A stretch of DNA of 64,000 nucleotides from a virus. Its lineage: Duplodnaviria > Heunggongvirae > Uroviricota > Caudoviricetes. A program made the translations under genes and the position numbers. Positions within the stretch are counted from its first letter, which is position 1, and each line of letters opens with the position of its first letter. The stretch is taken from the IMG/VR virus record IMGVR_UViG_3300020594_000001, positions 45,600 through 109,599 of that record; one strand, given 5' to 3'. Under the pieces are notes generated by a model. That model was given only the letters and a program-made list of their open reading frames with translations, was not told the DNA's origin and ran no database searches. Positions 13,466-62,098 of this stretch are shown here, piece by piece.

Positions 13466-13554
13466 TGCAGTAAGTGCTTACTACAAGTATCATCCAAAGA
13501 AAGAGGCGCAACTGCGCCCCTTGCCTTGAATTTATAGTGCCGAGCGACTTAGTG

Positions 13555-13704
13555 CTATTGGCGTTCTGCTCGCTGCTGCTCGTAGTAGGGCCGTGCCCAC
13601 ACAACGTCGATGAACGCGCACACGATCATGGCAACCGCCATGAACCAGCCGCTGCCCGTGATGCCCAGAATTACGCCAAAGACAATCAGAAGAAACCAAA
13701 TCAT
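13555..13704 (-). CDS. small membrane protein, 49 aa (MIWFLLIVFGVILGITGSGWFMAVAMIVCAF...)
   Basis: ATG at 13702..13704; two hydrophobic segments; trimmed from ORF 13555..14022. Confidence 0.4.
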   Translation of the reverse strand: MIWFLLIVFGVILGITGSGWFMAVAMIVCAFIDVVWARPYYEQQRAERQ

Positions 13705-13711
13705 GGGTGAG

Positions 13712-14047
13712 TCAGTCCTGGGGAAAGAAGTCGCGAGGGGTGAAGCTTGCCTTTGGTTCGAGAATGATCGGTGCTGGCTGGCTCTGCGCAGGCACAGAGT
13801 ATCCATACCCCTGGCCCCGCCCGCTAAATGTCGGGTCGGGCGCAACATAGGGCGCTGGCTTGCGTGCTTCGCGCTCAATCCTCGATAGGATTTTATTGTT
13901 CTGCTTGACCATGGCGCATGATGCGCTGTTATCATGGCACACGAAACGCCCGCCTCCGACGTAGCGCGCGCCCCCATCTGCATATACGGGCAGTCCCGCT
14001 GCCGCCAACATCGCAGCGGCAATAGCCCTGTTAAGTGCTCTGTTCAT
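13712..14047 (-). CDS. secreted or lipoprotein-like hypothetical protein, 111 aa
   Basis: N-terminal signal-peptide-like segment MNRALNRAIAAAMLAAAGLPVYA. Confidence 0.4.
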   Translation of the reverse strand: MNRALNRAIAAAMLAAAGLPVYADGGARYVGGGRFVCHDNSASCAMVKQNNKILSRIEREARKPAPYVAPDPTFSGRGQGYGYSVPAQSQPAPIILEPKASFTPRDFFPQD

Positions 14048-14652
14048 TTTCGTGCGCCCCCTACAATAATGGCAAAGATTTGCTTTGCCTGTTCATAGTC
14101 TACCTCTGTTTCTATCCTGATCGTGTGGTTCGAATTCACTCGGGCATCCACGAATCTTCCGTCGCTATAGCAGTAGGCGGTGAACTCGTCGTTGTGACGC
14201 GTGCGGTGGACAAGCCCTGCATCGGTCAGAATGTCGCGCAGCCCTTCGGCAATGTCAGTTCTGGCCCGCGTGGCATTGTCGGTTTCCTCTACTGCCACTT
14301 CCATCGCCTGAAGCCATTCGAGGTAACCGGGCAGCAAACGCCGCTGAATGTCGCGGGCGATATGCTCAGGCTTCTTCTGAGCGGACACCTTGATTTCGCC
14401 ATTCAAGGTCAGGTGACTTTGCCCGCGCGGCAGAAAGTAGTTATTGAGCGCTTTTGTGTGCGCAAAACTGATGCCGAACTTGCCCTCCAGGCGGTATTGC
14501 CCAAAGCGCATCATGATGCCCGCCCACTTGTGCAGGCCGGGAAGCGCGATCACGCGATGCCCCCTTGACTCGGGGCCATAAAACTCGCTGACAGGCTGGG
14601 GCTCACCCCCGAGAATTTCCGCCACTTTTACGATTTTATCGTCGTAGTTCAT
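14044..14652 (-). CDS. hypothetical protein, 202 aa
   Basis: Start at 14652 is preceded by the leader ...ACACCATAGCAAATCTAGGTAAACAGCG. Confidence 0.5.
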   Translation of the reverse strand: MNYDDKIVKVAEILGGEPQPVSEFYGPESRGHRVIALPGLHKWAGIMMRFGQYRLEGKFGISFAHTKALNNYFLPRGQSHLTLNGEIKVSAQKKPEHIARDIQRRLLPGYLEWLQAMEVAVEETDNATRARTDIAEGLRDILTDAGLVHRTRHNDEFTAYCYSDGRFVDARVNSNHTIRIETEVDYEQAKQIFAIIVGGARK

Positions 14653-14658
14653 CGCTGT

Positions 14659-14949
14659 TTACCTAGATTTGCTATGGTGTATGCATTGTGTTCGACCCTT
14701 GACGGCACAAATCACGTCATGAAGATCAGCTTCCTTACCATCGTCTTCAAGGCCAATAAGTTCAATAAAAACGTCAAACGCCTGTTCATTGGTAAGTTCA
14801 ACATCTGTGTAGAAATACATGCCGAAGTCTTCGATCGGAATTCCGGGGTCATCGCCAACAGGGTCGACCCAGCCGTCTTCAGTAATTTCGGCCCAGCGAC
14901 AATGTGGTCTTATGCTGTTGTGCCCCATAGCCCAAAGAAACTTTTTCAC
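14659..14949 (-). CDS. hypothetical protein, 96 aa
   Basis: Minus-strand ORF. Confidence 0.4.
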   Translation of the reverse strand: MKKFLWAMGHNSIRPHCRWAEITEDGWVDPVGDDPGIPIEDFGMYFYTDVELTNEQAFDVFIELIGLEDDGKEADLHDVICAVKGRTQCIHHSKSR

Positions 14950-15266
14950 TTGATTACCCCCGCTGCGCGAAGCGCCTTACCCCAATATCGCTGACTACGC
15001 GCATCTTTACCCGGGTGTAAGCTGTCACTGATGACGTCGCCCGTCGACGGATCGGCGTAGGGACCATTCGATACCCAGCGCGGCACGCCACTTGGCTCAG
15101 ACGGGTATACGTAGCCGTCCCACTTAAGCTTGTGGACGAGCTCTTTGAAGGTGATTTCGGCATCCTCGAAAACAAAACCCCGCTCTTCGGCTTCGCCCGC
15201 CTCGATGCTCTCTTCGGTGTAAACCTCATAGGTTTGGCTGATGATTATTGGCATTGCGCGGGCCAT
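14946..15266 (-). CDS. hypothetical protein, 106 aa
   Basis: Minus-strand ORF. Confidence 0.4.
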   Translation of the reverse strand: MARAMPIIISQTYEVYTEESIEAGEAEERGFVFEDAEITFKELVHKLKWDGYVYPSEPSGVPRWVSNGPYADPSTGDVISDSLHPGKDARSQRYWGKALRAAGVIK

Positions 15267-15580
15267 TACTCGACGATTTCATAACCAAAGACTGCAGGCC
15301 ACTTGTCAACGGGCGTTGTCGACGATGCAAGGTAGAAGTCACCCGATATGTTTTGAACTTCCAGGCGCATGGTGGCCGCCCATACTTCGTCCTTGACAAT
15401 GGCGACATCCAGCCCGTAGCCCATCTGCGGCAGACCGAACTGGCCGCAGAGCATTGAGGCGGTGCGCTTGGATACCTTGCGCATGTGGTCCTTGCCATAG
15501 CTCCAGTGATTACCAACTGGGGGCAGGCCCGTCTGCTTGATCTTCATAGCCATGGCGTCACCTAGGCGTTCTTTGCACAC
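15266..15580 (-). CDS. hypothetical protein, about 95-104 aa
   Basis: Minus-strand ORF. A possible 49-aa gene (about 15562..15711, ATG after the leader GCGCGCACCATACAGGTATCAACAACGAAACAGGTAAACACA) lies just upstream. Confidence 0.4.
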   Translation of the reverse strand: MCKERLGDAMAMKIKQTGLPPVGNHWSYGKDHMRKVSKRTASMLCGQFGLPQMGYGLDVAIVKDEVWAATMRLEVQNISGDFYLASSTTPVDKWPAVFGYEIVE

Positions 15581-15753
15581 CAGCGGTATGCACGAATTAG
15601 CGGGCCTGATATGGATAGATCCCTCACTGCCGCAGCCAGGATTACTTCTTGGTCAGCACGCGACTGCAAAATGAAGTGCGCAAGTAGCCTGCGCTCATGC
15701 GATGTAAGCATTGTGTTTACCTGTTTCGTTGTTGATACCTGTATGGTGCGCGC

Positions 15754-16011: not shown

Positions 16012-16087
16012 AGCGGTCTCCTGTGCCAGGAAACCGCCCCTGGCGCGTTAAAATGGTGATGGGTATGCTTGGGTATGGGTAAGCCCG

Positions 16088-16444: not shown

Positions 16445-16453
16445 GTCGCGCCC

Positions 16454-16678: not shown

Positions 16679-16741
16679 GATGTTTACCTGTTCTGATGTC
16701 GGTATGGTTATGATGCGCCCGTCGGTGAGGCGTTTTGCGCT

Positions 16742-16924: not shown

Positions 16925-16935
16925 ATCTTTCTCCG

Positions 16936-26850: not shown

Positions 26851-27077
26851 GGTGTCTCGGGCTGCTTTGATGGGAACGGAAGAACGTCGTCGTGAAGGAT
26901 CTTTGCTTGGCTGAGGTTGTCGAGCGCCTTGATGACGTGGTCATCACCAAAGCGACCGCATTCATCAGCCAGAATCCCCACAACCTGATAGGCTTCAGCG
27001 CAGATTCGCTCCAGTTCAGCGATGCGTTTCAAAGCGCTGCCAGAGACGTAGCCCTTAACCTTTCGGGTTATCTTCAT
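26847..27077 (-). CDS. hypothetical protein, 76 aa
   Basis: Minus-strand ORF. Confidence 0.4.
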   Translation of the reverse strand: MKITRKVKGYVSGSALKRIAELERICAEAYQVVGILADECGRFGDDHVIKALDNLSQAKILHDDVLPFPSKQPETP

Positions 27078-27283
27078 TTCAACGCCCTCACCCGCTCGAC
27101 AAACTCTTCGGGCTGAACAGGAAATCCCCCTTCGCCCGTGAAGCTCAGTTGGCCCGCTTCGAACAGTTTGTCGAATTCGCGCTTGGCCTTGGCTTTGTTG
27201 AAGCCCATTTCTTCAGCGAAGATTTGCACCGCTTTCTGGTAGTCCAGCGCGGTAAGAAGCTGTTTCTCGTAGTTCATAGTCAA
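27074..27283 (-). CDS. hypothetical protein, 69 aa
   Basis: The palindromic motif at 27309..27327 lies upstream. Confidence 0.4.
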   Translation of the reverse strand: MTMNYEKQLLTALDYQKAVQIFAEEMGFNKAKAKREFDKLFEAGQLSFTGEGGFPVQPEEFVERVRALK

Positions 27284-27308
27284 GTAGAAAGAGTGGTGTC
27301 CAAGCCAG

Positions 27309-27327
27309 TATAGTGAGCGCTTACTTT
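27309..27327 (-). promoter_or_regulatory. palindromic phage motif AGTAAGCGCTCACTATA
   Basis: The minus strand reads AAGTAAGCGCTCACTATACTGG. Intergenic. Confidence 0.5.
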
Positions 27328-27682
27328 AGTTTTGGCGCAAATATTCATAAGCGAGTTTGCGAATTTCCCAATAGTGATCGGGGGCCGCTGGCCCGGTGCT
27401 CACGTCGTGGGCAAGATCACCGATGTTGCGCAACACTTCTTGCATCCGCTCATTCTCTTTCTTGAGCTTAGTCACGTAGTTGCCGTAACCATCCAGCACA
27501 TGGCGGCAGTCAGGGTTATCACAAATGTGGTCGGCGGTCTCCCAAAGCACACCCATCAGATAGACGTCCTTACGGCGCAGATTGCGCTTGCCCAGCTGGT
27601 GGGCAAGGTCGCTGGGCGCTGAGATAACTGCCTGGACTTGCATACGCATGGAATACCCACACTTGGGGCAGGAATAGGTCAT
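27326..27682 (-). CDS. Cys-rich hypothetical protein, 118 aa (CPKCG ... CDNPDC)
   Basis: Start trimmed to MTYSCPKCG. Confidence 0.4.
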   Translation of the reverse strand: MTYSCPKCGYSMRMQVQAVISAPSDLAHQLGKRNLRRKDVYLMGVLWETADHICDNPDCRHVLDGYGNYVTKLKKENERMQEVLRNIGDLAHDVSTGPAAPDHYWEIRKLAYEYLRQN

Positions 27683-27695
27683 CGGCAGTATCTCG

Positions 27696-28004
27696 TCAAT
27701 CCAGCCCGGTTTCGGGCGGTGCCACGCGGTAAAGGCGCGCAATTTCTTCGAACGCCAGCGCCATCTGCTCGCGACGCGCTTGCGACCTCGGAAGCCAGAA
27801 CGTAATGGCTGAGCGGTCATCATCCATGGGGGGGTGATGCAGTCGCTCAGACGAATGCAGGATCAGCTGAACCCCGTGGTAATCGATACCTGTGTTCGAG
27901 CGCTTCACGGTCGTGAGCACTTCACTGGTTTGCTCTTGGCTGTAAACGTTTATACGCATGGTTTGATCCCTTTCACCACGATTCAGTGACGACTTCACTG
28001 CCAC
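27696..28004 (-). CDS. hypothetical protein, 102 aa
   Basis: Minus-strand ORF. Confidence 0.4.
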   Translation of the reverse strand: MAVKSSLNRGERDQTMRINVYSQEQTSEVLTTVKRSNTGIDYHGVQLILHSSERLHHPPMDDDRSAITFWLPRSQARREQMALAFEEIARLYRVAPPETGLD

Positions 28005-31072: not shown

Positions 31073-31475
31073 TGCCGTTCTGGGAATGCAACGCCAAATA
31101 AGCGCTTACTTTCCACCCGTCGGTTGCGTGGCCCTGCTCGGTGGCTGCAGCAATAAGCATCGCTTCTGCCGCCTCTTCCCCTCCCTTGCTCCACCTGGGT
31201 GGCAGGTCAACTTCGGTGTAAAACTTGAACAACTCTCGCTCCATGGTTTTGCCAACGCGATCAAGACCACGCACCGTGCATTCGATAGCGGGGCGAGCCT
31301 GAAGCGCCGAAAGCGCCCGAGAAAACTCCTTATGGCTGATACGCAGTTCCACGAACTCGGTTCTACTACTTCTGTCTTCAATTCTGATGGTTACGCCGTC
31401 TTCACCGTCTTCGCACCCACCGATCTTCGGATAACTAATACTTAGGGTTGCATCTATTTCTTTGCTAAAAGACAC
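31014..31475 (-). CDS. hypothetical protein, 153 aa
   Basis: Minus-strand ORF. Confidence 0.4.
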   Translation of the reverse strand: MSFSKEIDATLSISYPKIGGCEDGEDGVTIRIEDRSSRTEFVELRISHKEFSRALSALQARPAIECTVRGLDRVGKTMERELFKFYTEVDLPPRWSKGGEEAAEAMLIAAATEQGHATDGWKVSAYLALHSQNGNGKDADGRRWYLLSKTRYV

Positions 31476-32937: not shown

Positions 32938-32955
32938 TCACCTTATAGTAAGTGC

Positions 32956-33534
32956 TTACTCTAATTCGGAGACGAAAAGATCGCTGGTTTTGTCGAGGGC
33001 TTCCCCGCAGAACGTCGCCAGCTTGCCAAGCTTTATAGTCTCGTCTTTGTTAAGGAAGTATGCAGACCTATTGATGACCAGCTTTGTCACCAATTTGCCC
33101 TCAATAAGCACCAAGCTGGCTTCAATCTGGACTCCCCCTGGCGCGTCACTGACGACTTCAAGTGGGGCTACTTCGGACTGAATGGGCTTTGAAGGTGGCT
33201 TCGTGGGTGCGTTCTTGGTGTAACCACCGTTGATACTCCCGAGCGGAAATTCGTGCTTAACCGCTTCTGTCACGAACGCCTCCAGACTGTCCTCGCTGAC
33301 GTAGACAGCCCCATCGGGCAGCTTCGTAGTGGTCATCTTGGCCCATGCGGGCGTGTTCGTTCGTGTTGACCGTTTGCCGCGTGAGTAGTTGTGTATGAAC
33401 GCGGTCCAGTAACCCTGGGGTAGGTCGCTATCGAGCGTGGACTTGATCAGCGTGGCGCTTTCAACAACGGTATACCAGCGCTTGCCATCCTTGTCAGTAA
33501 TCATGATTGGAACTCGGGTTGGGTCAGCATCCAA
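32956..33534 (-). CDS. hypothetical protein, 192 aa
   Basis: The palindromic motif at 32945..32961 lies in the short gap after its stop (towards the SPFH operon), not upstream of its start. Confidence 0.45.
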   Translation of the reverse strand: MDADPTRVPIMITDKDGKRWYTVVESATLIKSTLDSDLPQGYWTAFIHNYSRGKRSTRTNTPAWAKMTTTKLPDGAVYVSEDSLEAFVTEAVKHEFPLGSINGGYTKNAPTKPPSKPIQSEVAPLEVVSDAPGGVQIEASLVLIEGKLVTKLVINRSAYFLNKDETIKLGKLATFCGEALDKTSDLFVSELE

Positions 33535-34906: not shown

Positions 34907-35341
34907 TTACGCGCCGCGACGCAGCTTTGTCACGGTGTCGATCAGTTGGGCGGTGCCCATTTCTTTAAGTCTGACGTGTCGCTCCCGGCCCCCGTCAAAC
35001 AGCGCAAACGAGTCGTTGACCGTCATCGTTGCAGCTTTGATTTCACGTATGAGGTCGATACGAAGGAGCATCAGGTTCCAACGCGAATCGAATATCGACG
35101 TGGCGACATACAGCGAGGTGATCGAGTCCTCTTTGCTGCCCGCAACGTATTCAATGACCTTGCCTGGGAAAGCGTGGTGCCCGAACAGGCAAACATGCCC
35201 GCCCTCGTAGCTACGAACCCAGAAGCCCTCCTGGGCAGCGTCAGGCACCTCAACCAGGTAGCGCAACATCGACTCGACGGTCTTTTCGTCGCTCAAGGGC
35301 TTGATGTCGCGGTTAGCGCGAATCAACAGATTTTCAACCAT
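34907..35341 (-). CDS. hypothetical protein, 144 aa
   Basis: The motif at 35343..35365 lies upstream. Confidence 0.45.
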   Translation of the reverse strand: MVENLLIRANRDIKPLSDEKTVESMLRYLVEVPDAAQEGFWVRSYEGGHVCLFGHHAFPGKVIEYVAGSKEDSITSLYVATSIFDSRWNLMLLRIDLIREIKAATMTVNDSFALFDGGRERHVRLKEMGTAQLIDTVTKLRRGA

Positions 35342-35365
35342 TGTAAGTAAGCTCTCACTACAAGT

Positions 35366-38000: not shown

Positions 38001-38024
38001 AAAAAAGCCAGCCAAAGGGCTGGC
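38001..38024 (-). terminator. rho-independent terminator after nrdB
   Basis: On the minus strand the hairpin GCCAGCCCTTTGGCTGGC is followed by TTTTTT. Confidence 0.6.
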
Positions 38025-38075
38025 GTTACGGGATTTATAGTTAGCGACGACTATCGCCCTTCGCACAAGGCATCG

Positions 38076-39075: not shown

Positions 39076-39333
39076 CTACTCTCCCGGTCGGGCTACGGCG
39101 CGCACAAGGGCCATGAAGCCAGTTTGGATGTCAGTCTTGGCGATTGCTGCCCAACGGTAGGGCTCGCCATTCAACACTCCACCTGATTGTGCTGCCGTCT
39201 CGCGAAGATGGTCGAGCACACGTTCGTGCAGTGCCAGAATCTCCGCTTCCTTCTGCTTGACTTCGTTCATCAGGTCGATTTCAGCCTGAGTCAACTCGCG
39301 ATACCCATTGATTTGTCGGTGCTGGTTGTCCAC
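39076..39333 (-). CDS. hypothetical protein, 85 aa
   Basis: Lies between nrdA and nrdB. Confidence 0.4.
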   Translation of the reverse strand: MDNQHRQINGYRELTQAEIDLMNEVKQKEAEILALHERVLDHLRETAAQSGGVLNGEPYRWAAIAKTDIQTGFMALVRAVARPGE

Positions 39334-39337
39334 TGCG

Positions 39338-39553
39338 TTACTCCATGAATGCGCTGACGCGCTCGTTTAAGCACTGAACGAGCAGCGCCATAAGAAAGTG
39401 CTGACGCGCAAGGCGCATCTGTTCTGGTATAGGAACGCTGTCAAACTCGTCACTCTCGACGAATGCATTCAAGCTGTGCAGCCGGCAGCTGGCTTCGCTA
39501 AGCTCAGCAACAACCCTCTGTTGATATGGGGCTAAGTCTTTGTATGACTTCAT
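39338..39553 (-). CDS. hypothetical protein, 71 aa
   Basis: Minus-strand ORF. Confidence 0.4.
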   Translation of the reverse strand: MKSYKDLAPYQQRVVAELSEASCRLHSLNAFVESDEFDSVPIPEQMRLARQHFLMALLVQCLNERVSAFME

Positions 39554-39572: not shown

Positions 39573-39613
39573 GGGGCGTCATACGCCCCTTTATAGTGAG
39601 TGCTTACTTACGT
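39573..39613 (-). promoter_or_regulatory. phage motif (AAGTAAGCACTCACTATAAAGG) followed by hairpin GGGGCGTATGACGCCCC
   Basis: It lies between the nrdA stop and the next gene. The motif-plus-hairpin arrangement recurs at 43098..43140. Confidence 0.5.
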
Positions 39614-41900: not shown

Positions 41901-41977
41901 TTTGTTCCTTCTTAAACGTGGAGGTGTGTCGGTCGATTGTAAGTAAGCGCTCGCTTACACTTCAAACCAAAAGATTG

Positions 41978-43087: not shown

Positions 43088-43531
43088 TTACCAACTGCCC
43101 CAATTGGGGTTTTCCTTATTTATAGTGAGCGCATCACTCGCTTGTGCCTCGGACTCAGCGCGCTCACGCTCCAGGGAAGCGCCAAGGTGTTCGCGAGATT
43201 CAAAGCTGTTAATCGCTTGGAGCAGAACGTCTTTTAGACTGGAATCGAAGATGTCCAGCGCATTGTTCGGCCCAACCCATATAGTCGACCCATCCGAGTA
43301 ATCGGCAAAGCAAAGCCTCCACCCGACTATCGATGCGTCAAGCTCGGCACTCTGTAGATCGAGAGCTTCTTCCCCAATGTATGAATGAAGGGTAGTTGCG
43401 CCATACCTTGTCGTCGCCGAAAGACGACAAGGGCAGGCAAGGCGAAATTTAAACGGTTTGGCGTCGAGAAGCCTGGTTATTTCACCGACCCATTGTTCTG
43501 GCGTTAATGCCCCAAGAATTTCGTCACGCAA
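43088..43531 (-). CDS. hypothetical protein, 147 aa
   Basis: The motif at 43121..43140 lies just 3' of its stop. Confidence 0.4.
   Translation of the reverse strand: MRDEILGALTPEQWVGEITRLLDAKPFKFRLACPCRLSATTRYGATTLHSYIGEEALDLQSAELDASIVGWRLCFADYSDGSTIWVGPNNALDIFDSSLKDVLLQAINSFESREHLGASLERERAESEAQASDALTINKENPNWGSW
43098..43140 (-). promoter_or_regulatory. phage motif (GCGCTCACTATAAATAAGG) followed by hairpin CCCCAATTGGGG
   Basis: Intergenic, between 43088..43531 and the RuvC-like gene. Confidence 0.5.
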
Positions 43532-46026: not shown

Positions 46027-47105
46027 AGCGATACCCCCGCGACTGAAAGAATTCGAGCGCACGCATCATTGACAGCCTTCTTGTCACTGAATGCCTGTGC
46101 CGCAATGTAGTGTTCTACGCTCTTGAAGATCGATGCTCCACCGCTGACGGATGCGCTGACCCCGCCCTCACGCGTCACCCTCGCTTTTGGCATTGATCGA
46201 ATCAGAACGCCCTTGGCTCCCCAGGAGATAAGTTCTGCACGAATTGCCTCGATTTCGCTATGGGCAGACTTTTCAGTCTTTACCCTCACGTAGTTGCCGT
46301 CGACCATCAGAGGGACGTCCTCTGACTCGAACTCAGCCAGCTGATCGAGGTCGAGAAACTCGGGAAGGTGCGATTTGAAGAACTTGACCGTATCGTCATG
46401 CACTAGCAGAAAGCCCGCCTTAGTGCCCACGTCGGACCAGGTGTGATGCGCCAGCGCACCAATCGAATAGACCTCGCCGGGGAATTGTTTGTAGTTGTGG
46501 TAATGACCTGACAGAATACGCTTGAAGCCGCGCTCTGCAAGCCAAGCGGGGTCAATTCCGGTGTCAGGCAAGCCCTGGATCACTCCGTTTACCGGAGCGT
46601 GAATGATCAGCGTATATTCGCCAACGTTTGGCCCCAGAAGCTCTGCGACACGAACAATTTCAGCGTGTAACGAAGACACCTTGTCATACCAGGGAATCAT
46701 CGCAACCTTGTCGTCGGTAAAGACTTCGGTCGCATTGACGATTTCGACCGCTTCAGTCTCCAATGCAGTCACCGCACTGGAAAGGCGCTCTGAGTCACGG
46801 CGCGCAAGGTCATGGTTGCCCGAGATAATTCGAAACTCGAAACCCCGCTCCGTCAATTCGGTAAGCGTGTCGAGCACCGGGTTGAGCACCAAAGGTGACA
46901 CCTGGCCGCGAGTGTGGAATACATCGCCACCACAGTAGATGCGGTTTCCCCCCGCCTTGCGAGTTTCTTCCGCGCAGCGCTTGAGCTCGCCAAGCAACCC
47001 ACGCAGGCGCAGACTCACCCCATCAGGGTCATCCTCACTGAAGCTACTCCAAGCGTGGAAGTGCGGGTCAGAGAACAGGCCAAATGGCTTTTTCATAGTA
47101 AGCAC
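46023..47105 (-). CDS. sbcD: SbcD/Mre11-like nuclease
   Basis: Calcineurin-like phosphoesterase motifs DPHF, GGDVFH and GNHD; adjacent to sbcC. Confidence 0.75.
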   Translation of the reverse strand: MLTMKKPFGLFSDPHFHAWSSFSEDDPDGVSLRLRGLLGELKRCAEETRKAGGNRIYCGGDVFHTRGQVSPLVLNPVLDTLTELTERGFEFRIISGNHDLARRDSERLSSAVTALETEAVEIVNATEVFTDDKVAMIPWYDKVSSLHAEIVRVAELLGPNVGEYTLIIHAPVNGVIQGLPDTGIDPAWLAERGFKRILSGHYHNYKQFPGEVYSIGALAHHTWSDVGTKAGFLLVHDDTVKFFKSHLPEFLDLDQLAEFESEDVPLMVDGNYVRVKTEKSAHSEIEAIRAELISWGAKGVLIRSMPKARVTREGGVSASVSGGASIFKSVEHYIAAQAFSDKKAVNDACARILSVAGVSL

Positions 47106-47115
47106 TTACTCCAAA

Positions 47116-51890: not shown

Positions 51891-51932
51891 AGAGTGTTCT
51901 CCGTTCTGTGTCTTTTGGCGTGTTGTGCATCG

Positions 51933-51978
51933 TCGAAAGTGAGTGCTTACGAAGTATAGTAAGCACTCACTACGATAC
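51933..51978. promoter_or_regulatory. double (inverted) copy of the phage motif: AGTGAGTGCTTAC-N8-GTAAGCACTCACT
   Basis: A 13-bp inverted repeat in the intergenic gap upstream of the SSB-like gene. Confidence 0.5.
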
Positions 51979-52766: not shown

Positions 52767-55700
52767 TCAGTTGGTTAGTTCTGCGATTTGGGCGCAGGTT
52801 TGTTGAAGCAGCTTGATCTTGCTCGCGTCGAAGTAGATGGTGCTCGGATTCATTCCAAAGACGATGCTGGCGTCCAAGGCGGGATCGAAGATTGTCTTGC
52901 CCACTAACTCTGTGGGGTTACCCTTGGTCGACGGGGCAAAGTAGCGAATGGCATTACCACCCATGGCGACAATGACGGCGGGCTTGAGAATTTCAATTTC
53001 CCGAGCCAGATACTTTGAGCAACCATTGATTTGCTCTGTCGAAAGCACCTTCTGCTCTTTTGGTTTTACTGACTTCACCAGGGAAGTGTAGTAACCGTCG
53101 TTAGGACTGAGACCCGCGTCTTTGAGCGCCGCGCGAACCGCGTCACCAACGTCGCCCGACAGCATTTTTCCGTCTTGCGCTTCCTTCCAGTTGGGGGAGT
53201 CGAACACCATCATGAAGCGTGGCTTCTTACCCATGCTGGGCGTGGGGTGCTGCCCGCCAGACAACGAGCAACCGTCGCAAACACGCATTTCTCCGATGAT
53301 TTCTGCAATCTTCAGCTGAGCGATACGGTCGGCATTGAGCCCACGGTCCGCCTTCACTGCGTCAACGGTGTATCCCGGCATGAGTTCCAGGCGGTCTTTC
53401 AGTCGGTCAGGGTGCAGCGCAGGCAAGCCGTCGCCAAGCGATGCAAAAGCGCCCACCTTGCGTAGCACCTCTTTGTGGCGCACGTTGATTTTGCCCGCGA
53501 CGGTGCTCTTGGCGACCTCTTCAAACTGATCGAACGACTCGAAGGGTTTACCCTGGGCAGCGCGCACCTCAAGAATCTTCGCAGCCACGTTTACGCTGAT
53601 ACCCTTGATGGCCTGGAATGGCGCATAGAGTGTGCGTTCACCATCGATTGTGATTGTGTCGGACGACTTATTGATATCCGGTGGCAGCACGTCGATCCCG
53701 TGCGTCTTGGCGTCCATCATGATGGGCGCAAGCTTGTCGTCATCGTCGACCACCGACATAGACGCCGCATAGAACTCAGCTGGGTAATAGACCTTGAGCC
53801 ACATCATCTGATAGGAAATCAAGGTGTATGCGAACGCGTGGGACTTATTAAAGCAATACGCGGCAAAGCCCTCGATGTCGTTCCAAAGTGCCTGCGCATC
53901 AAGCTCACTCATGCCACTGGCGACTGCGCCATCGATGAACTGTTGGCCCATCGTTGCCATCTTGTCCTTGTCTTTCTTACCGATCGCTTTACGAAGCCCG
54001 TCAGCTTCTGCGCCGGTAAACCCGCAAAGGTCGACCGCGATTCGGGATACCTGCTCTTGGTAGACCGTAACCCCGAATGTTTCGCGCAGCGCGGGTTCGA
54101 CCAGCGGACTGATGTAGCTGGGCAGTTTCTTGCCTTGCTTAACTGCGATGTATTGATCCATCAGCCCCGCGTCGATTGGACCCGGACGAAACAGTGCTGT
54201 CGCGGCGGCGATATCCTCGAACGTCAGAGGCTCTAACACCGCCAAATCTTTCAGCAGCTTGCGCATGCCCGAGCCAGAAAACTGAAACACGCCCACCGTA
54301 TCGCCTCGACCAAATGCTTCAAGCACCTTACGATCGTCCAGCGGCAGCGCCAGCAGGTTGATCGTCTTATGATGGCGCTCTTTGATATAGCGACGGGCAT
54401 GCGCAAGCACGTCGAGCGTAGACAGACCCAGAATGTCCATCTTGACGAGGCCGAAGTCTTCAACCACGCTTTTATCCCAGTTCACCACCGGCAGCGCACC
54501 CTCTTGACGCTGCATCACCACCGCGCGGGTGTTGATGTCATCGTGCGCGACAATGACGCCCGCTGCGTGCTGCCCCAGGTTACGCATGTTCCCTTCGAGC
54601 GTCGTCGCATGGTTCCATATGACGGGATGCTCAGCCTTGAACTTTGCAATATCTGGCACGCTCGCCGCAGACTCTTCGAGCGGAAGCGAAACCCCGTGCT
54701 CCTTCTCCATTTGCTTGGAACACGAATATTCGTAGGGCTTCAGACCATGCACACGGGAGACGTCCCGAAGTGACGAAGCGGAGCCCAGGGTCGAATAGTT
54801 CGAAATGCCCGCGACTTTGGCGCGACCAAACCTGCCCACGATATACTCGACGACTTCGCCTCGTCGTGAGCTCATGAAGTCCATGTCCACGTCAGGCAGG
54901 TCGATACGGTCGGGATTGATGAAGCGTTCGAACAGAAGGCCAAACCGAATCGGGTCTAAGTCTGTAATGCCAAGCAGGTATGACACCAATGAGCCCGCAG
55001 CTGAACCGCGACCAGGGCCAACGATGACGTCTTGCGCTTTTGACCAACCGACAATCTCTTGAACAAGCAAGAAGTAGTTCGAGAACCCGAGGCGTCGCAG
55101 CACGCCAAGCTCATACGCCAAGCGCTCCTTATACCTCTGCATATCTTCGGGCGCGGGCTTGTGGCCCAGCACTTCACTACCAAAGCGTTTTACCCAGCCT
55201 TCTTTGCAGCGCTCTAGCAACGTCTTGAATGCGTCTTCAGCCATATGGGGCAGCGACGCAGGCATCTTCTCGAAGCGATAGAAGCACTGCTCGACAATCT
55301 GATCCATGGACGCGAAACTTTGCTTAACTTCATCGCCATTCATTCCGATACGGCGGGCGGTCGAAATCATTCGCGTCGCGAGCTCTTTGGGGTCATCGAA
55401 GCACCAATCCCGGGTAGCTGGCACAGGCAGCTGGGGAGAGCCCATGGTGTATGTTCCAGAGCTTGTGATGGCCCTGAGAACATCATGGCTTGCAGCTTGG
55501 TCGCTTGATGCATAAAAGCGCGGGTAGCCCGCAATCAGCGGTAGCCCACGACTGCGGGCGCATGCCAGCGCTTTGCGGTTGAGCGTGTCGAACAACATGC
55601 TCTGAACCGGCGTAATCTCGATATAGAGCGGGTGTTTCTCCGACAGCGCTTGGACGATTTCGCCTGCCTTGGGGTGATGAAACAGGCAGAATAGGTCACC

Positions 55701-56135
55701 CGTTGTGACAATCACGTCTTCAAGCGCCAGCACCTGTGAAAGCTCGGTGCGGGCATGGTAGTAAAACTGGTCAGCGCTGTTTGCCTTAGACAGCAAGCCC
55801 ATCAGCGACCGCAAACCCGTCTCGGTCTTTACGTAAACCTTGATTTGAAAAGAGTGGTTTCGAACCTCAACCGCGCCCTCTTTCTTCTTTTGCTGAGCGG
55901 TGGGCGGGCGATAAGTTGCGCTGTCATATACACGAAGCGTGCACCCAAGAACAGGGGTAATGTCGTGCTTCTTGCAAGCAGACGAGAATGCGGGCAAGCC
56001 CGATATCGTCATGGTGTCTGTGAGCGCGATCGATTTGAAGCCCAACTCTTTGGCGCGCTCAACCATCGGCACCACCTGCAAGATTGACTCCCCGACAGAG
56101 TGATCAGACCGAACAGACAGTGCATGTTGTAACAC
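52767..56135 (-). CDS. dnaE: DNA polymerase III alpha subunit (DnaE-type)
   Basis: N-terminal PHP domain and the palm region GPGRGSAAGSLVSYLLGITDLDPIRFGLLFERFINPDR; 1122 aa. Confidence 0.85.
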   Translation of the reverse strand: MLQHALSVRSDHSVGESILQVVPMVERAKELGFKSIALTDTMTISGLPAFSSACKKHDITPVLGCTLRVYDSATYRPPTAQQKKKEGAVEVRNHSFQIKVYVKTETGLRSLMGLLSKANSADQFYYHARTELSQVLALEDVIVTTGDLFCLFHHPKAGEIVQALSEKHPLYIEITPVQSMLFDTLNRKALACARSRGLPLIAGYPRFYASSDQAASHDVLRAITSSGTYTMGSPQLPVPATRDWCFDDPKELATRMISTARRIGMNGDEVKQSFASMDQIVEQCFYRFEKMPASLPHMAEDAFKTLLERCKEGWVKRFGSEVLGHKPAPEDMQRYKERLAYELGVLRRLGFSNYFLLVQEIVGWSKAQDVIVGPGRGSAAGSLVSYLLGITDLDPIRFGLLFERFINPDRIDLPDVDMDFMSSRRGEVVEYIVGRFGRAKVAGISNYSTLGSASSLRDVSRVHGLKPYEYSCSKQMEKEHGVSLPLEESAASVPDIAKFKAEHPVIWNHATTLEGNMRNLGQHAAGVIVAHDDINTRAVVMQRQEGALPVVNWDKSVVEDFGLVKMDILGLSTLDVLAHARRYIKERHHKTINLLALPLDDRKVLEAFGRGDTVGVFQFSGSGMRKLLKDLAVLEPLTFEDIAAATALFRPGPIDAGLMDQYIAVKQGKKLPSYISPLVEPALRETFGVTVYQEQVSRIAVDLCGFTGAEADGLRKAIGKKDKDKMATMGQQFIDGAVASGMSELDAQALWNDIEGFAAYCFNKSHAFAYTLISYQMMWLKVYYPAEFYAASMSVVDDDDKLAPIMMDAKTHGIDVLPPDINKSSDTITIDGERTLYAPFQAIKGISVNVAAKILEVRAAQGKPFESFDQFEEVAKSTVAGKINVRHKEVLRKVGAFASLGDGLPALHPDRLKDRLELMPGYTVDAVKADRGLNADRIAQLKIAEIIGEMRVCDGCSLSGGQHPTPSMGKKPRFMMVFDSPNWKEAQDGKMLSGDVGDAVRAALKDAGLSPNDGYYTSLVKSVKPKEQKVLSTEQINGCSKYLAREIEILKPAVIVAMGGNAIRYFAPSTKGNPTELVGKTIFDPALDASIVFGMNPSTIYFDASKIKLLQQTCAQIAELTN

Positions 56136-56145: not shown

Positions 56146-56772
56146 TTATGATTCGTTGTGGTAATACAGCTTTGTAGTATTGCTATCGATGCGAGGATTG
56201 AGCGTCATCAAGCCCGCAGCGTCTTCGACGCCTATCCCAAGCTCTTTGAAAACGCGCCAGATCAATGACGCCTGGACCGACGCTGAGCTCGATGCCCAGC
56301 CTAGGGCAGATTGGAGCGCTGCCTTCGCTTGTGCCTTGGAAACAGGAACACGGTTGGACAGCAGCAGATACATCGTGCTGGCGGTGCGTTGGCTGTCATT
56401 TGGGAATGGGTTCTCGCCATTGGCAAGCGCCTGGGCAATGAAAGTCTCTTTCCTGAACATTGCCCGCATCATCTTGCCCACCGCTGCAGGAACGCTGTCG
56501 ATCAGCGCTTTCTGTGTGGGCGTCGGTGCCCAGCGCGCGCGGGTCGCCCGCTCGACTTTCACCTCAAGAGGTCTGGGCTGCGCAACGCGTTCGACCGGGT
56601 CATTAACCGCGACCATTGTGCTGAAGGTCAGAATGAGCTCTGGATCGCCAATCCTCGATAGGACGGTGCGAGACACCGACACACACGCATTTGCGCTGGC
56701 GCATGTGTTGCATTTGGGCGACCGCACGCTAAACACGCTGGGAATGCCAAAGCACCCCGGTTGCCTAAGCAT
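56146..56772 (-). CDS. hypothetical protein with N-terminal Cys cluster; candidate anti-sigma partner
   Basis: Cys cluster CFG...KCNTCASANAC. It overlaps the sigma factor stop by 8 nt, suggesting translational coupling. Confidence 0.3.
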   Translation of the reverse strand: MLRQPGCFGIPSVFSVRSPKCNTCASANACVSVSRTVLSRIGDPELILTFSTMVAVNDPVERVAQPRPLEVKVERATRARWAPTPTQKALIDSVPAAVGKMMRAMFRKETFIAQALANGENPFPNDSQRTASTMYLLLSNRVPVSKAQAKAALQSALGWASSSASVQASLIWRVFKELGIGVEDAAGLMTLNPRIDSNTTKLYYHNES

Positions 56773-57448
56773 GAATCTTCACCCCCAACACGGTGTCGAA
56801 CTCCTGCGCGATGCCGCGCATTTGCTCGCGGGAATAGCCTAGGTAACGCCCGATAAGACGAACCGACAGCTTTTCGCTCGGATTGCGACGCTTAGCGCCA
56901 CCCGCAATGTGCTTGTGAATGGCAGCGAGATATTCTTCGTGCGCGTCCATAACCGCCTGGGTCGGGGCCATGATTTCACGAATGATGCGCCGGGCCTCTG
57001 CCGATAGGCACCTAATTCGCTCTGAAATTTCGACGCTACGCACTGCCAACTGCTCGACGCTCAGCGTGGTGTCGGCCAGGTATTGCTCGGGGGAAAACTC
57101 GTCTTCGTCGTCCTCCCCAGACATTTCGCTAAAAAGCATCACCCCATGCAGGGCTCGCTCTTCGATGCGCTTGTTGACATAGCGGTTCACGTTGTTAAGC
57201 ACCGCCCGCCCCATGTAAGCGCTGAATGTGATGCCCAGGCCAGGCTTATAGGTGCGCAGTGCCTCAGCGTAAGAAAGACACGCCTCTTGGAACAAGTCTT
57301 CGTATTGAATGTTGGTCTTTGTCGCAAGAACCCGCGTGTGGATGGTCCTGGCGAGCTTGTGGATTAAGCCTTTCTGGGCTTCGAAGCTGGTGTCAAAACC
57401 ACGCCCCACCCCGGGGCGTGATCCTGATTGTTGAAGTTGAGTGCTCAT
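56765..57448 (-). CDS. sigma-70 family RNA polymerase sigma factor (regions 2 and 4)
   Basis: Region 2-like EDLFQEACLSYAEALRTYKPGLGITFSAYMGRAVLNNV and a C-terminal HTH LSVRLIGRYLGYSREQMRGIAQ. Confidence 0.5.
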   Translation of the reverse strand: MSTQLQQSGSRPGVGRGFDTSFEAQKGLIHKLARTIHTRVLATKTNIQYEDLFQEACLSYAEALRTYKPGLGITFSAYMGRAVLNNVNRYVNKRIEERALHGVMLFSEMSGEDDEDEFSPEQYLADTTLSVEQLAVRSVEISERIRCLSAEARRIIREIMAPTQAVMDAHEEYLAAIHKHIAGGAKRRNPSEKLSVRLIGRYLGYSREQMRGIAQEFDTVLGVKIHA

Positions 57449-57465
57449 GAGGGCTCGATGAAGGG

Positions 57466-58629: not shown

Positions 58630-58754
58630 GTTTGCTCCGTAAAAATAGCGTGAGCGCTCACTTACAATCTTTCTTATAGTAAACGCTTACTTCAAGACGT
58701 GGATATTATGCAGCAAAACCGAATTTGGAGATAGTGCTTACTCCAAATATTGGG

Positions 58755-60683: not shown

Positions 60684-60719
60684 TGTGAACTCAAAGCTTG
60701 ATTAACGAATAAACGTAGT

Positions 60720-60935
60720 CTATGAGTTAAGTGTAGGAACATCCCACTTACTAATAATGGCTGCAGAACCTAACGCGTCGAACATTACATAGAAGTCTTC
60801 GTTGGCGGCGGTTCGACACGGAACGAAGGCAGTGGAACCCGCATACACGGGTTGCCTGCTGCTGTCTTCGAACGCTTGAACAAACTCTGCCGCTACATCA
60901 TGGCTAACTGCTTGAATAAACACAAATGACTCCAA
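60720..60935 (-). CDS. hypothetical protein, 71 aa
   Basis: It is the last gene of the minus-strand array. A divergent motif pair lies upstream. Confidence 0.4.
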   Translation of the reverse strand: MESFVFIQAVSHDVAAEFVQAFEDSSRQPVYAGSTAFVPCRTAANEDFYVMFDALGSAAIISKWDVPTLNS

Positions 60936-61003
60936 AGGTTAAAGGGACTGCTGAAAGTGTAGTAAGACAAAATTAACAATTCTTTGGCAAATATGTTGGA
61001 CAA

Positions 61004-61046
61004 TTTATAGTTAGCGCTTGCTTTATCAAGTAAGCACTAACTATAC
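61004..61046. promoter_or_regulatory. divergent pair of the phage motif (TATAGTTAGCGCTTGC / GTAAGCACTAACTATA)
   Basis: It sits between the divergently transcribed genes 60720..60935 (-) and 61091..61420 (+). Confidence 0.5.
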
Positions 61047-61090
61047 TTCTACTACGTCATTCGACATGACTTTTTTATGGGAAGCCACCC

Positions 61091-61420
61091 ATGGCTTCCA
61101 GGGGAGCGCTTATGGCAAGTAAGAAAGGGGCTAACGTCCCGACCGCCGCTGACATCCTCAGCGAGGCGATAAAAAACTCGGGCGATAAGCTCAGCAGTGT
61201 GGGCCAAGCAATGGGCTTCAAAAGCCACTCTGCCATCTGGCAATATTGCAAGGGCACAACCGGCATACCGATATCAACAGCTATCAAACTTGGGCTCGCA
61301 GCCGGTATGACGCATGAGCAAGCCCAGGAATTCTTTCTCATCAACATGCGGGAACGTGACCCAGAATTATATGCAGCTGTAACAACTGTAATAAATTCTG
61401 CCATCGCGGCGCGGGGCTGA
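61091..61420 (+). CDS. helix-turn-helix transcriptional regulator (Cro/CI-like)
   Basis: LSSVGQAMGFKSHSAIWQYCKG resembles an XRE-type HTH. It is plus-strand, next to the int/xis module. Confidence 0.5.
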   Translation: MASRGALMASKKGANVPTAADILSEAIKNSGDKLSSVGQAMGFKSHSAIWQYCKGTTGIPISTAIKLGLAAGMTHEQAQEFFLINMRERDPELYAAVTTVINSAIAARG

Positions 61421-61425
61421 TTATA

Positions 61426-62073
61426 GTGCCAGTGGAGCCGCACATGAACATAAATCAGCTTCCAGGCAAGTGGCGTTGCACACTTTTACAACAATCTCCG
61501 ATCTGGGGCAGGCCGGTCGACAGCATTTCCCACCTCGATTTGCGCATTTTTCTGCGCCAACACTGGGGCACGCAGTCGTATAACCACGCTCTTGCCGAGG
61601 TGGGAGACCTTATCAGCGTGGTTTGGGACGCTATGCTTGCGGGCGCTATAGAGGGTGCCCCGAAGATCATTTATTTCGAGCCGCCCTCGCCCAGGTTGAC
61701 CGTCGACGAACTTATCGCATGGCTGAGCAATGCATCGATTGAGCGGCGTAGGGCAATTTTGTTCGCCCTGGAAGCAAAGCGCTCGATTAAAGAAACGGTG
61801 GAGCTTTGTCACGATGACCTGCGTTCAATGAAATTAAGCCCGTTGGCAAGTGACATAGTGCGCTCGATGGTTAGGAACCTGCATCTGGACTACGTCTTTT
61901 GGGAACGCTCGGCGCTTACGGGCAAGCCAATGCCTCTGATCGGGCTGGCAGATTCAGTCACCGACGTAAGCCAGGGGATCGGGTTTGATGCCCTACGACG
62001 CCTTTACGACGATCTTCTGGTTGTGGATCGGCATGCAGACCTTCGTAGCTTCGCCACGCTCGTATATCACTAA
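61426..62073 (+). CDS. hypothetical protein, 215 aa
   Basis: Plus-strand ORF 6 nt after the regulator. Confidence 0.4.
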   Translation: MPVEPHMNINQLPGKWRCTLLQQSPIWGRPVDSISHLDLRIFLRQHWGTQSYNHALAEVGDLISVVWDAMLAGAIEGAPKIIYFEPPSPRLTVDELIAWLSNASIERRRAILFALEAKRSIKETVELCHDDLRSMKLSPLASDIVRSMVRNLHLDYVFWERSALTGKPMPLIGLADSVTDVSQGIGFDALRRLYDDLLVVDRHADLRSFATLVYH

Positions 62074-62098
62074 AAGTAAGCACTTACTATAAATTGGG
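62073..62098 (+). promoter_or_regulatory. phage motif AAGTAAGCACTTACTATAAATTGGG in plus orientation upstream of the excisionase gene
   Basis: Intergenic, 21 bp before the ATG at 62119. Confidence 0.45.

Follow-up and report, generated by a model that had tools for sequence, protein, structure and literature searches.

An intergenic palindrome with an adjoining -10-like hexamer in a family of SSU5-like phage-plasmids

Copies of the palindrome in the window

The window, meaning the whole 64,000-nt stretch of DNA analysed here, is part of a distant SSU5-like phage-plasmid, and genes for NrdA, SbcD, a gp32-like SSB, CobT, CobS, a sigma-70-family-like protein and an excisionase-like HTH protein are among those it carries. 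A palindromic motif, AGTRAGYRCTYACT, gives 31 strand-hits in it against 0.9 expected, at about 16 loci that are nearly all intergenic. The scan was made with AGTAAGYGCTYACT and allowed two mismatches or fewer, with a shuffled control of 0.92 ± 1.13 matches (largest shuffle 4). Every copy listed in the initial annotation was recovered, together with two others, an intragenic one without a TATA flank (AGTAAGCGCTTATT, 31097..31110), whose function is doubtful, and a degenerate one at 58729. Positions 1-13000 hold no copies, and on the parent contig there is a further copy (L192:8625) some 3 kb beyond the left end of the window. The element consists of a 14-bp palindrome, A-GTRAGYRCTYAC-T, directly adjoined by a -10-type hexamer, and the strict pattern GTRAGYRCTYAC occurs at 9 window sites, where 0.03 are expected, which corresponds to 14 per 100 kb.

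Most copies are on the minus strand. The leftmost, AGTAAGCACTTACT followed by GCAATG (13463..13482, 14-mer from 13469), has a terminator-like hairpin upstream, and gene 13196-13465 has its ATG 16 nt past the 12-bp core. The copy AGTAAGCGCTCACT with ATACTG, which forms a -10-like TATACT (27306..27325, 14-mer from 27312), stands between genes 27326-27823 and 27074-27283. At 32941..32960 (14-mer from 32947), AGTAAGCACTTACT with ATAAGG is followed by a Shine-Dalgarno sequence and the ATG of a 38-aa ORF, 13 nt past the core, and at 35340..35359 (14-mer from 35346), AGTGAGAGCTTACT with TACAAT has the ATG of gene 34907-35341 5 nt past its core. NrdA is flanked on both sides, upstream by AGCGAGCGCTTACT with TACAAT (41936..41955, 14-mer from 41942) and, right after its stop codon, by AGTAAGCACTCACT with ATAAAG and a hairpin (39573..39608, 14-mer from 39595), in which the -10-like TATAAA adjoins the terminator hairpin 39589-39573. 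Another copy, AGTAAGTGCTTACT (47091..47110, 14-mer from 47097), adjoins the sbcD start codon directly (…ACT-ATG).

Several copies are grouped. A tandem pair (51958-51971 and 51938-51951, within 51932..51971, minus strand) lies upstream of the gp32-like SSB gene, and a minus-strand cluster between CobT and CobS (58643..58742) is composed of 58678-58691 with ATAAGA, 58649-58662 (CGTGAGCGCTCACT) and the degenerate copy 58729-58742. In the switch region, a back-to-back pair between divergent genes (61003..61048) has 61009-61022 pointing leftward (…AACTATAAAT) and 61029-61042 pointing rightward (…AACTATACTT). On the plus strand, AGTAAGCACTTACT with ATAAAT (62075..62094, 14-mer from 62075) is upstream of the excisionase-like HTH gene 62119-62412. 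Two more minus-strand copies are degenerate: AGTGATGCGCTCACTATAAATAAGG (43115..43140), the core of which carries a 1-nt insertion, and the copy at 38034-38057 (…TCGCTAACTATAAAT; feature 38007..38057), which has a poor left half and is followed by a terminator hairpin (38024-38007).

Flanking sequences and conservation in relatives

The hexamers adjoining the core are TATAAA, TATACT or TACAAT in the window and TATAAT in AT-rich relatives. TATA follows the core in the direction of the gene at 8 window sites and is mirrored at none (p = 0.008); the Acinetobacter element pA52-1 has 8 in gene direction and 2 mirrored. Next to the core, -10 scores are 4.5 versus 2.0 in the window, 4.7 versus 2.5 in pA52-1 and 3.7 versus 2.1 in Salmonella phage SSU5, while the -35 score equals background in these three genomes and no -35 element is conserved. 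Canonical sigma70 promoters in 27.2-47.15 kb are at chance level (12 versus 9.9 ± 3.3), and the copy upstream of NrdA is the sole one in that region to score as such (TTGAAG-18-TACAAT). Gaps from core to ATG of 1, 5, 13, 16 and 20 nt occur in the window; at about a quarter of the copies, a sigma-type start would land within or past the Shine-Dalgarno sequence because the next start codon is too near. In AT-rich genomes the -10-like flank is nearly symmetric and could be part of a longer palindrome.

On the coding (minus) strand, the hairpin 39573-39589 has the make-up of a strong terminator, with 7 pairs, 6 of them G-C, and a T-run after it. A second such terminator, 38007-38024, lies past the degenerate copy there, whereas the hairpin CCCCAATTGGGG at 43098-43109 has a T-run on the non-coding strand only. 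At the copy at 39596, a start about 7 nt past the -10 would fall in the terminator loop, so that new transcripts would escape termination.

That copy also bears on the resemblance to T7-class promoters pointed out in the initial annotation. The elements are contiguous, about 20 bp long and end in …CACTATA; one copy has ACTCACTATA in common with the T7 consensus and is identical at 10 of 10 positions from T7 -10 to -1, and a start right past TATA would keep the Shine-Dalgarno sequence in the transcript at short-gap sites. Such a start at 39596, however, would place a complete strong terminator in the first 25 nt of the transcript, and the motif, unlike T7-class promoters, is palindromic with independent half-sites. 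Pfam finds no single-subunit RNA polymerase among the large ORFs of the window, in agreement with the initial annotation, nor among the large unannotated ORFs of pA52-1, and the annotations of the complete relatives SSU5 and pA52-1 list none either. A reader of this type encoded outside the window thus has next to no chance of being correct, and the reading was rejected.

The palindrome looks to be used genome-wide by a family of SSU5-like phage-plasmids of about 100 kb. In pA52-1 it is the only dominant intergenic motif, with 27 copies, 24 of them intergenic in a genome that is 88% coding (P = 1.3e-19), and SSU5 has 16 copies against 0.65 expected. Copies are at orthologous junctions upstream and downstream of NrdA, upstream of the SSB gene and between CobT and CobS; those at CobT/CobS and upstream of NrdA recur in both pA52-1 and SSU5, and pA52-1 has the copy ahead of the SSB gene. 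Across the family, the palindrome is enriched, intergenic and conserved in position, and it is present in the replication, structural, lysis and maintenance modules. These observations support a phage-lineage-specific, intergenic, oriented and promoter-associated element.

The half-sites change one at a time and without compensation, as is characteristic of sites bound by a dimeric protein; a Cupriavidus plasmid has a symmetric variant, whose two half-sites carry the same change in mirror image (GTCAG…CTGAC). This variation, with the missing -35, makes a dimeric protein the likely reader, as the second option of the initial annotation had it. RNA-level elements, such as RNase III processing hairpins, translational operators or terminators, would suit copies that lie between genes, in many cases a few to about 60 nt ahead of a start codon and in some adjoining it, and a palindrome that reaches about 26 bp in AT-rich relatives. 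They are extremely improbable nonetheless: the would-be stem contains A-C and T-C mismatches, the 14-mer alone gives a stem of 5 bp at most, window copies are without a T-run, Rfam returns nothing at the motif sites, and strict conservation across genomes of 41-61% GC argues for sequence-specific recognition by a protein.

The sigma-like protein and its cysteine-rich partner

The first leftward operon from the switch region, which is itself headed by the motif, encodes a 227-aa sigma-70-family-like protein (56765..57448, minus strand). Its earlier assignment is borne out by Pfam Sigma70_r2 (31.3 bits, cut-off 24) and by PHROG sigma-factor families; region 2 is clear and region 4.2 weakly detectable. 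The gene overlaps by 8 nt the ORF of a 208-aa Cys-rich partner (56146..56772, minus strand), and the pairing of the two is conserved in the lineages of the window, Acinetobacter and Cupriavidus. The cysteines of the partner's N-terminal module, C-x14-C-x2-C-x5-C, are spaced as in WhiB-like proteins, and its C-terminal domain has a winged-helix topology in the structure model (pLDDT 85-95), with the DNA-binding domains of DtxR, IclR, MarR and Fur as top fold matches, all weak (E > 0.5). The Wbl-type assignment is based on Cys spacing and on the name that one source gives to one homolog; Pfam Whib does not match the partner. The module is conserved in SSU5 as the 67-aa SSU5_051, whose model is of low confidence, without the C-terminal domain. 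An anti-sigma role, suggested earlier, is not supported for a protein with these features, which lacks the HxxxCxxC motif and is no ZAS-type anti-sigma.

In this lineage the motif could be the promoter class of the pair, a doubtful but credible alternative. The sigma-like protein would read the -10-like hexamer, while the WhiB-like Fe-S module of the partner would bind sigma region 4 and its winged-helix-like domain would contact the palindrome, replacing -35 recognition. Besides the pairing of the genes and the partner's domains, this is favoured by a motif that has a -10 and no -35, and by the lack in pA52-1 of any other recurrent intergenic motif able to be the sigma's promoter class. Yet SSU5 has its 16 copies without a sigma-like gene and without the C-terminal partner domain, BLAST shows no similarity between the sigma-like protein of the window and that of pA52-1 despite identical motifs, and the partner's putative recognition helix and the motif do not vary together, as the helix of pA52-1 resembles that of Cupriavidus and not that of the window. 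Together with the absent -35 and the position of the sigma gene inside a motif-headed operon, this leaves the phage sigma unsupported as the necessary reader, and the protein is not required for the element to exist.

Candidate readers and known systems

The reading to which we give an even chance is that the copies form the upstream halves of factor-dependent promoters across the SSU5-like phage-plasmid family. Transcription would start some 18.5-19.5 bp downstream of the palindrome centre. The -10 element would be read by a multisubunit RNA polymerase holoenzyme, and a dimeric DNA-binding protein on the palindrome would act as an activator in place of -35 recognition, on the model of Lpa in P1. 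Alternatively, the dimeric protein might occlude the promoter as a global repressor; activation is favoured, given the missing -35 and the chance level of canonical sigma70 promoters in the region scanned. Short core-to-ATG gaps, the symmetric -10-like flank of AT-rich genomes and the lack of a shared regulator count against a factor-dependent promoter, as does the spread of copies beyond one temporal gene class, unlike P1 late promoters. Among the proteins common to the window, pA52-1 and SSU5, no conserved DNA-binding regulator or Lpa homolog was found.

Operators of a lysogeny (immunity) repressor that silences lytic promoters would likewise be palindromic, overlap promoter cores and be dispersed, like the P1 C1 operators, and a copy pair does sit in the switch region. 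This is very unlikely, however. Neither SSU5 nor the window has a homolog of the CI-type HTH repressor of pA52-1, the palindrome is constant between lineages whose switch-region proteins differ, and genes on the lysogeny-side strand also have copies ahead of them (62075).

With a host reader, the failure to find a conserved phage regulator would be accounted for, and the nucleoid-occlusion factor SlmA, or a host TetR-like protein of the same specificity, is an improbable candidate. As a limiting host protein, it would keep the element's promoters repressed as long as copy number is low, and/or link cell division to the element's presence. SlmA binds the consensus GTGAGTACTCAC with a Kd of about 50-60 nM and requires G, T, A and G at positions 1, 2, 4 and 5, with a purine at 3 and a pyrimidine at 6 (PMC3020112). 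The 12-bp core fits this exactly, at conserved and degenerate positions alike, and has the A…T flanks of the experimental oligonucleotide (PMC3020112). With SlmA on an SBS inside a promoter, a reporter is repressed; the protein can also activate transcription (PMC5519180). SSU5, the lineage without the sigma-like gene and the partner's C-terminal domain, has hosts with SlmA. Against this, an SlmA ortholog is absent from A. baumannii (PMC7481262), although pA52-1 retains its 27 copies, including 10 that are strict; only 3 of the 16 SSU5 sites are strict, the Cupriavidus GTCAG violates the pattern, and no element encodes a SlmA homolog. In Enterobacterales and Vibrio, chromosomal SBSs lie outside promoters at about 1 per 100 kb (about 1 ChIP peak per 100 kb in E. 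coli, none in a promoter region), whereas the sites here, at 9-14 per 100 kb, adjoin -10 hexamers. The match could also be a coincidence among the many known palindromic sites.

As for other known systems, the kor regulon of RK2 likewise repeats one short palindrome for a dimeric regulator at many backbone promoters, with KorA (OA) and KorB (OB) operators, those of KorA overlapping the -10 region. RK2, however, is a conjugative plasmid with known plasmid-encoded repressors and promoters with normal -35 elements. In sigma appropriation by T4 AsiA/MotA and with actinobacterial WhiB proteins, a small protein sits on sigma region 4 and a DNA-binding module replaces -35 recognition, a possible analogy for the sigma-like protein and its Cys-rich/winged-helix partner; the box here is at about -19 and not -30.

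The closest known architecture is that of the P1 late promoters, 11 in number, which are activated by Lpa (gp10) with host SspA (PMC10695390, PMC1891329). A phmmer search of the window, SSU5 and a set of loci from the relatives gave no Lpa homolog, and none of the candidates scanned matches Pfam BPP1_LPA. P1 is also a phage-plasmid, and its many late promoters combine a -10 with a short inverted repeat that lies some 20 bp ahead of the start and replaces the -35. The P1 box is 9 bp long with an odd centre, whereas the palindrome here has 12-14 bp and an even centre, and P1 uses it for late genes only, while the copies here serve all modules. The P1 boxes AAGTTACTT and ATGTGACTT have their AAGT/ACTT half-sites in common with the AAGYRCTT core found here (PMC10695390).

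A repeated palindrome across SSU5-like phage-plasmids

The repeated motif described in the initial annotation is real. With up to 2 mismatches allowed, AGTAAGYGCTYACT is matched 31 times on the two strands of the 64-kb window, where 0.92 matches are expected and shuffled sequence never yielded more than 4. These matches correspond to about 16 loci, which include every copy listed at the outset and, as was claimed, are nearly all located in intergenic gaps. Two extra copies were found, an intragenic one at 31097 and a degenerate one at 58729, and further degenerate copies lie near 43115 and 38034.

No close DNA match to the window was found among known phages. A scan of IMG/VR with a 17-mer led to distant syntenic relatives in which the motif is identical and protein identities range from 35 to 57%, and a scan of genome collections with the same 17-mer returned chance single matches only, none of them related to the window. 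The structural protein of one relative groups the family with the Salmonella phage SSU5 and with phage-plasmids of Klebsiella and Escherichia. The AT-rich relatives are phage-plasmids of Acinetobacter baumannii, such as pA52-1 (110,713 bp), and further-off members are found on Cupriavidus and Methylobacterium plasmids. A Roseobacter phage-plasmid described in a paper was considered as a relative and discarded, its element being an unrelated one of 42 kb. The parent of the window measures at least 93–110 kb, and the window represents its right-hand 64 kb. By Pfam, this is a replication and nucleotide-metabolism arm, with genes for RNR, SbcCD, RecA, a gp32-like SSB, FEN, DnaE, CobS/CobT, RtcB and an integrase, nearly all on the minus strand, and with a divergent region at 60.7–61.4 kb.

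In pA52-1, GTAAGYRCTTAC occurs in 27 copies at up to 1 mismatch; 24 fall between genes, in a genome of 88% coding sequence (P = 1.3e-19). The copies are distributed over the replication, tail, capsid, portal, terminase, lysis and ParB-like modules, and no other intergenic motif is dominant in this genome. SSU5 contains 16 copies (0.65 expected) in structural and replication modules alike. Junctions orthologous to those of the window are CobT/CobS, NrdA/NrdB and the regions upstream of NrdA and of the SSB gene. A Cupriavidus member carries the variant GTCAGCGCTGAC, in which the change is mirrored in both half-sites. The motif is thus a lineage-wide and genome-wide element of SSU5-like phage-plasmids, and a literature search found no paper with its sequence. 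Such elements are common in bacteria of clinical importance, and next to no work exists on how they are regulated; a single box marking some 15–30 promoters per genome would offer a handle on their transcription programme, for reporter design, reader pull-down and operon prediction.

Several other features of these elements were observed. Positions 930–5650 of the window are almost devoid of ORFs and harbour a permuted, two-piece tmRNA at 5296–5612 (minus strand; Rfam, 106 bits) and a weak tRNA at 4237–4307 (minus strand). Such two-piece forms are characteristic of alpha-proteobacteria, some beta-proteobacteria and cyanobacteria, which hints at the identity of the host. At the other end, a tyrosine integrase gene (62409–63506, minus strand) adjoins a tRNA-Val (63656–63728, minus strand) and an excisionase-like HTH gene (62119–62412, plus strand); the parent ENA contig stops about 100 bp past the end of the window. 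Between the genes for the large and small RNR subunits lie two small genes (39076–39553) with precomputed Pfam matches to the anti-defence families Sequestin (PF21825) and Acb2_Tad1_hairpin (PF24729). The DnaE-type polymerase encoded at 52767–56135 has a C-terminal domain of the uracil-DNA-glycosylase family (PF03167, precomputed Pfam). In pA52-1, a NUMOD4 homing-endonuclease-like ORF interrupts the counterpart gene, and the RecA contains an intein.

Motif anatomy and promoter architecture

Within a genome, deviations from the palindrome affect a single half-site each and are uncompensated (for example GTCAG…CTTAC and GTAAT…CTTAC), which speaks for two half-sites contacted by protein and against a hairpin. 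An alternative put forward at the outset, a site for a dimeric DNA-binding protein, fits this pattern of variation. The centre of the motif is a pyrimidine-purine step in every copy.

A −10-like hexamer sits directly after the core or one base on, and its mean match to TATAAT is 4.5 in the window, 4.7 in pA52-1 and 3.7 in SSU5, compared with 2.0–2.5 at random positions. The flank is oriented: in the window, TATA follows the core in the gene direction at 8 sites and in the mirror direction at none (p = 0.008). Exact TATAAT in pA52-1 is found 8 times in the gene direction versus twice in the mirror direction, one of the two mirror cases facing a divergent gene. The copies at 61009 and 61029 form a back-to-back pair flanked by divergent genes. 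At a spacing of 16–18 bp, the best match to a −35 is at background level in the window, pA52-1 and SSU5. An independent scan of 27.2–47.15 kb found canonical two-hexamer sigma70 promoters at chance level (12 vs 9.9 ± 3.3), with only one of the seven motif copies in this interval qualifying as such. The architecture is therefore a −10 without a −35, preceded by a palindrome whose centre lies about 18.5–19.5 bp before the inferred start.

The best-supported model is a factor-dependent promoter, in which a putative dimeric protein would occupy the palindrome and a multisubunit RNAP holoenzyme would read the adjoining −10, the arrangement being deployed over the whole genome of SSU5-like phage-plasmids. 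In about a quarter of the copies, the following start codon is so near that a transcript begun at a sigma-type position would not retain the Shine-Dalgarno sequence, which leaves room for an operator-only role or unusual start geometries.

At 39573–39608, the −10-like hexamer and a strong intrinsic terminator form a compact overlap: the TATAAA of the copy at 39596 directly abuts the terminator (39589–39573). A sigma-type start about 7 nt past this hexamer would land in the terminator loop, so new transcripts would escape termination and read-through from nrdA would terminate. Terminator-then-promoter is not a general architecture, a clear upstream terminator being present at 13470 only.

A T7-type start at 39596 would transcribe the entire terminator, which counts against the likeness to T7-class promoters suggested at first. 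One motif copy does have ACTCACTATA in common with the T7 consensus; the motif is a palindrome with independent half-sites and not an asymmetric, contiguous −17 to +6 element. The window had been said to be without a single-subunit RNAP gene, and Pfam indeed detects none in its large ORFs. The complete genomes of the relatives SSU5 and pA52-1 have no annotated gene of this kind either, and two pA52-1 ORFs of unknown function (853 and 569 aa) have no Pfam domain. On these sequence grounds, the T7-like reading is rejected.

Other repeats turned out to be of a different nature. The second repeat of the window, GCATGATGTTTACCTTG, was tried as a regulatory palindrome and is instead a conserved ribosome-binding cassette at five gene starts. 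Its copies (plus-strand coordinates 113, 2904, 9313, 13188 and 16676) precede small genes and read ACAAGGTAAACATC-ATG on the coding strand, which suggests that small ORFs are shuffled like cassettes. Another abundant motif, CGGTAGAAGCACGA of Cupriavidus, represents TrfA iterons: about 14 iterons, CATCGGTAGAAGCACGA, lie beside trfA at 13030–13630 of the Cupriavidus plasmid NZ_CP090528.1, itself a member of this phage-plasmid family, and make up a replication origin of the plasmid type. In SSU5, intergenic palindromes of a second class, AACAAnTTGTT, occur at 13 sites (among them 82, 30450, 42730, 70220 and 82469) located 13–50 nt upstream of start codons. This class is absent from the window and pA52-1, both of which carry the sigma-like gene instead.

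Candidate readers encoded by the element

The assignment of the 227-aa protein encoded at 56765–57448 (minus strand) to the sigma-70 family is borne out by a Pfam match to Sigma70_r2 (31.3 bits, cut-off 24). In addition, it matches the PHROG sigma-factor family phrog_351 (E 2e-9), its best PDB matches are FliA and another sigma factor, and its Acinetobacter ortholog is annotated by NCBI as a sigma-70 family sigma factor. Region 4 has no Pfam r4 match and shows a weak collinear alignment of residues 192–210 with FliA region 4.2. Family membership is thus credible from sequence comparison. The protein is rare, with two clusters among 5.8 billion proteins, and was not found in INPHARED phages or IMG/VR.

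As the required reader of the palindrome, this phage sigma is not supported. Motif and sigma gene do not co-occur across related genomes: the complete SSU5 genome has no sigma-like ORF by a profile built from three divergent orthologs, yet it carries 16 motif copies. The sigma-like proteins of the window and pA52-1 share no BLAST similarity although their motifs are identical, no bipartite −35/−10 with conserved spacing accompanies the motif in the window, pA52-1 or SSU5, and the operon of the sigma gene is itself headed and interrupted by motif copies. A narrower role, with the motif as a lineage-specific promoter class of the sigma, may still hold; pA52-1 offers no other recurrent intergenic motif to serve as such a class.

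The overlapping Cys-rich partner of 208 aa (56146–56772, minus strand) had been proposed as an anti-sigma, which is not supported: it is no ZAS-type anti-sigma, having neither the HxxxCxxC signature nor a Pfam match to an anti-sigma family. Its four cysteines are invariant (C-x14-C-x2-C-x5-C), with no His before the CxxC. This N-terminal module has a WhiB-like Cys spacing, without a Pfam Whib match or a PDB profile match, and one homolog is labelled "4Fe-4S Wbl-type domain-containing protein" in UniRef. In SSU5, the Cys module is all that is retained; it forms the 67-aa protein SSU5_051, whose gene has the same position. Models of the Cys module are of low to moderate confidence, and that of the 67-aa protein is of low confidence. 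For the C-terminal domain, the model is confident (pLDDT 85–95) and shows helices and a beta-hairpin; its top fold matches are winged-helix DNA-binding domains of dimeric repressors, all at E > 0.5, and among the window, pA52-1 and Cupriavidus its putative recognition helix does not change in step with the palindrome. If the sigma and its partner did act together on the palindrome, this would amount to a novel mode of recognising promoters that lack a −35.

An immunity repressor is an unlikely reader, judging from sequence conservation: neither the HTH_3 repressor of pA52-1 nor the switch-region proteins of the window have homologs across lineages, and the palindrome is kept. No evident regulator emerged among the conserved proteins examined. 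A conserved 191-aa protein flanked by motif copies, considered as a TetR-like regulator, is a RuvC-like resolvase. The ParB-N-domain proteins, which are conserved beside a motif copy, were considered as KorB-like readers and dismissed; no HTH could be recognised in them, and the sites hold a constant position with respect to the −10, which KorB operators do not. Two such proteins belong to a conserved cluster upstream of the terminase genes (pA52-1 72316–76613, SSU5 99817–103237), together with ABC-type ATPases and small ORFs; here, a motif copy lies 3 nt (SSU5) or 22 nt (pA52-1) upstream of the first gene start.

Likeness to SlmA sites and P1 late promoters

A likeness of the motif to LacI/GalR-type operators, GacA boxes and the P22 Arc operator was set aside, as the spacing or the flanks are not the same and proteins of these kinds are not encoded. 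The host nucleoid-occlusion factor SlmA, with the consensus GTGAGTACTCAC, was shown by experiment to require G, T, A and G at positions 1, 2, 4 and 5, a purine at position 3 and a pyrimidine at position 6 (PMC3020112), and the 12-bp core fits this specificity exactly (GT-R-AG-Y|R-CT-Y-AC). Sites of the strict pattern number 9 in the window (0.03 expected), 10 in pA52-1, 3 of the 16 copies in SSU5 and none in Cupriavidus. In the window they are about 13 times as dense as SlmA ChIP peaks along the chromosome of E. coli, where no peak lies in a promoter. When bound to a site inside a promoter, SlmA represses a reporter, and it is also able to activate transcription (PMC5519180).

Nevertheless, SlmA cannot be the universal reader, since A. 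baumannii lacks it (PMC7481262), no homolog was found in the window element or the relatives examined, few of the sites in SSU5 follow the strict pattern and the variant in Cupriavidus departs from it. Enterobacterial hosts have SlmA, and from the sequence match its binding to those enterobacterial copies that fit the pattern would be expected. A broader reading, which we consider improbable, is that SSU5-family elements (in Salmonella, Klebsiella, E. coli, Yersinia pestis and Acinetobacter) have almost every promoter under the control of one palindrome of exact SlmA specificity. Limiting SlmA would then be a copy-number-sensitive global repressor in SlmA-bearing hosts, or the element would manipulate division via SlmA, and in SlmA-less hosts its own phage sigma and the WhiB-like/winged-helix partner would serve. 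A functional SlmA match would link a host cell-division checkpoint protein to the control of mobile elements, and the joint reading would imply an unusual Wbl-type sigma-binding factor outside Actinobacteria.

The factor-dependent promoter preferred here has a counterpart in phage P1, whose late promoters consist of a 9-bp "−22 region" and a −10, as annotated in the P1 record. All 11 contain an inverted repeat that is bound by Lpa, together with the host protein SspA (PMC10695390, PMC1891329). In both systems, a −10 without a −35 is combined with an inverted repeat some 20 bp before the start, its position here being relative to the inferred −10. The two P1 boxes examined, AAGTTACTT and ATGTGACTT, have half-sites in common with the AAGYRCTT of the motif. 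A phmmer search with P1 Lpa found no homolog in the window, the first 100 kb of SSU5 or the searched loci of relatives, and among the proteins scanned Pfam BPP1_LPA matches P1 Lpa itself only. The two systems also differ in deployment: the P1 boxes serve late operons for morphogenesis and lysis, whereas the motif is not so restricted and its copies precede replication, nucleotide-metabolism, structural, lysis and ParB-like genes.
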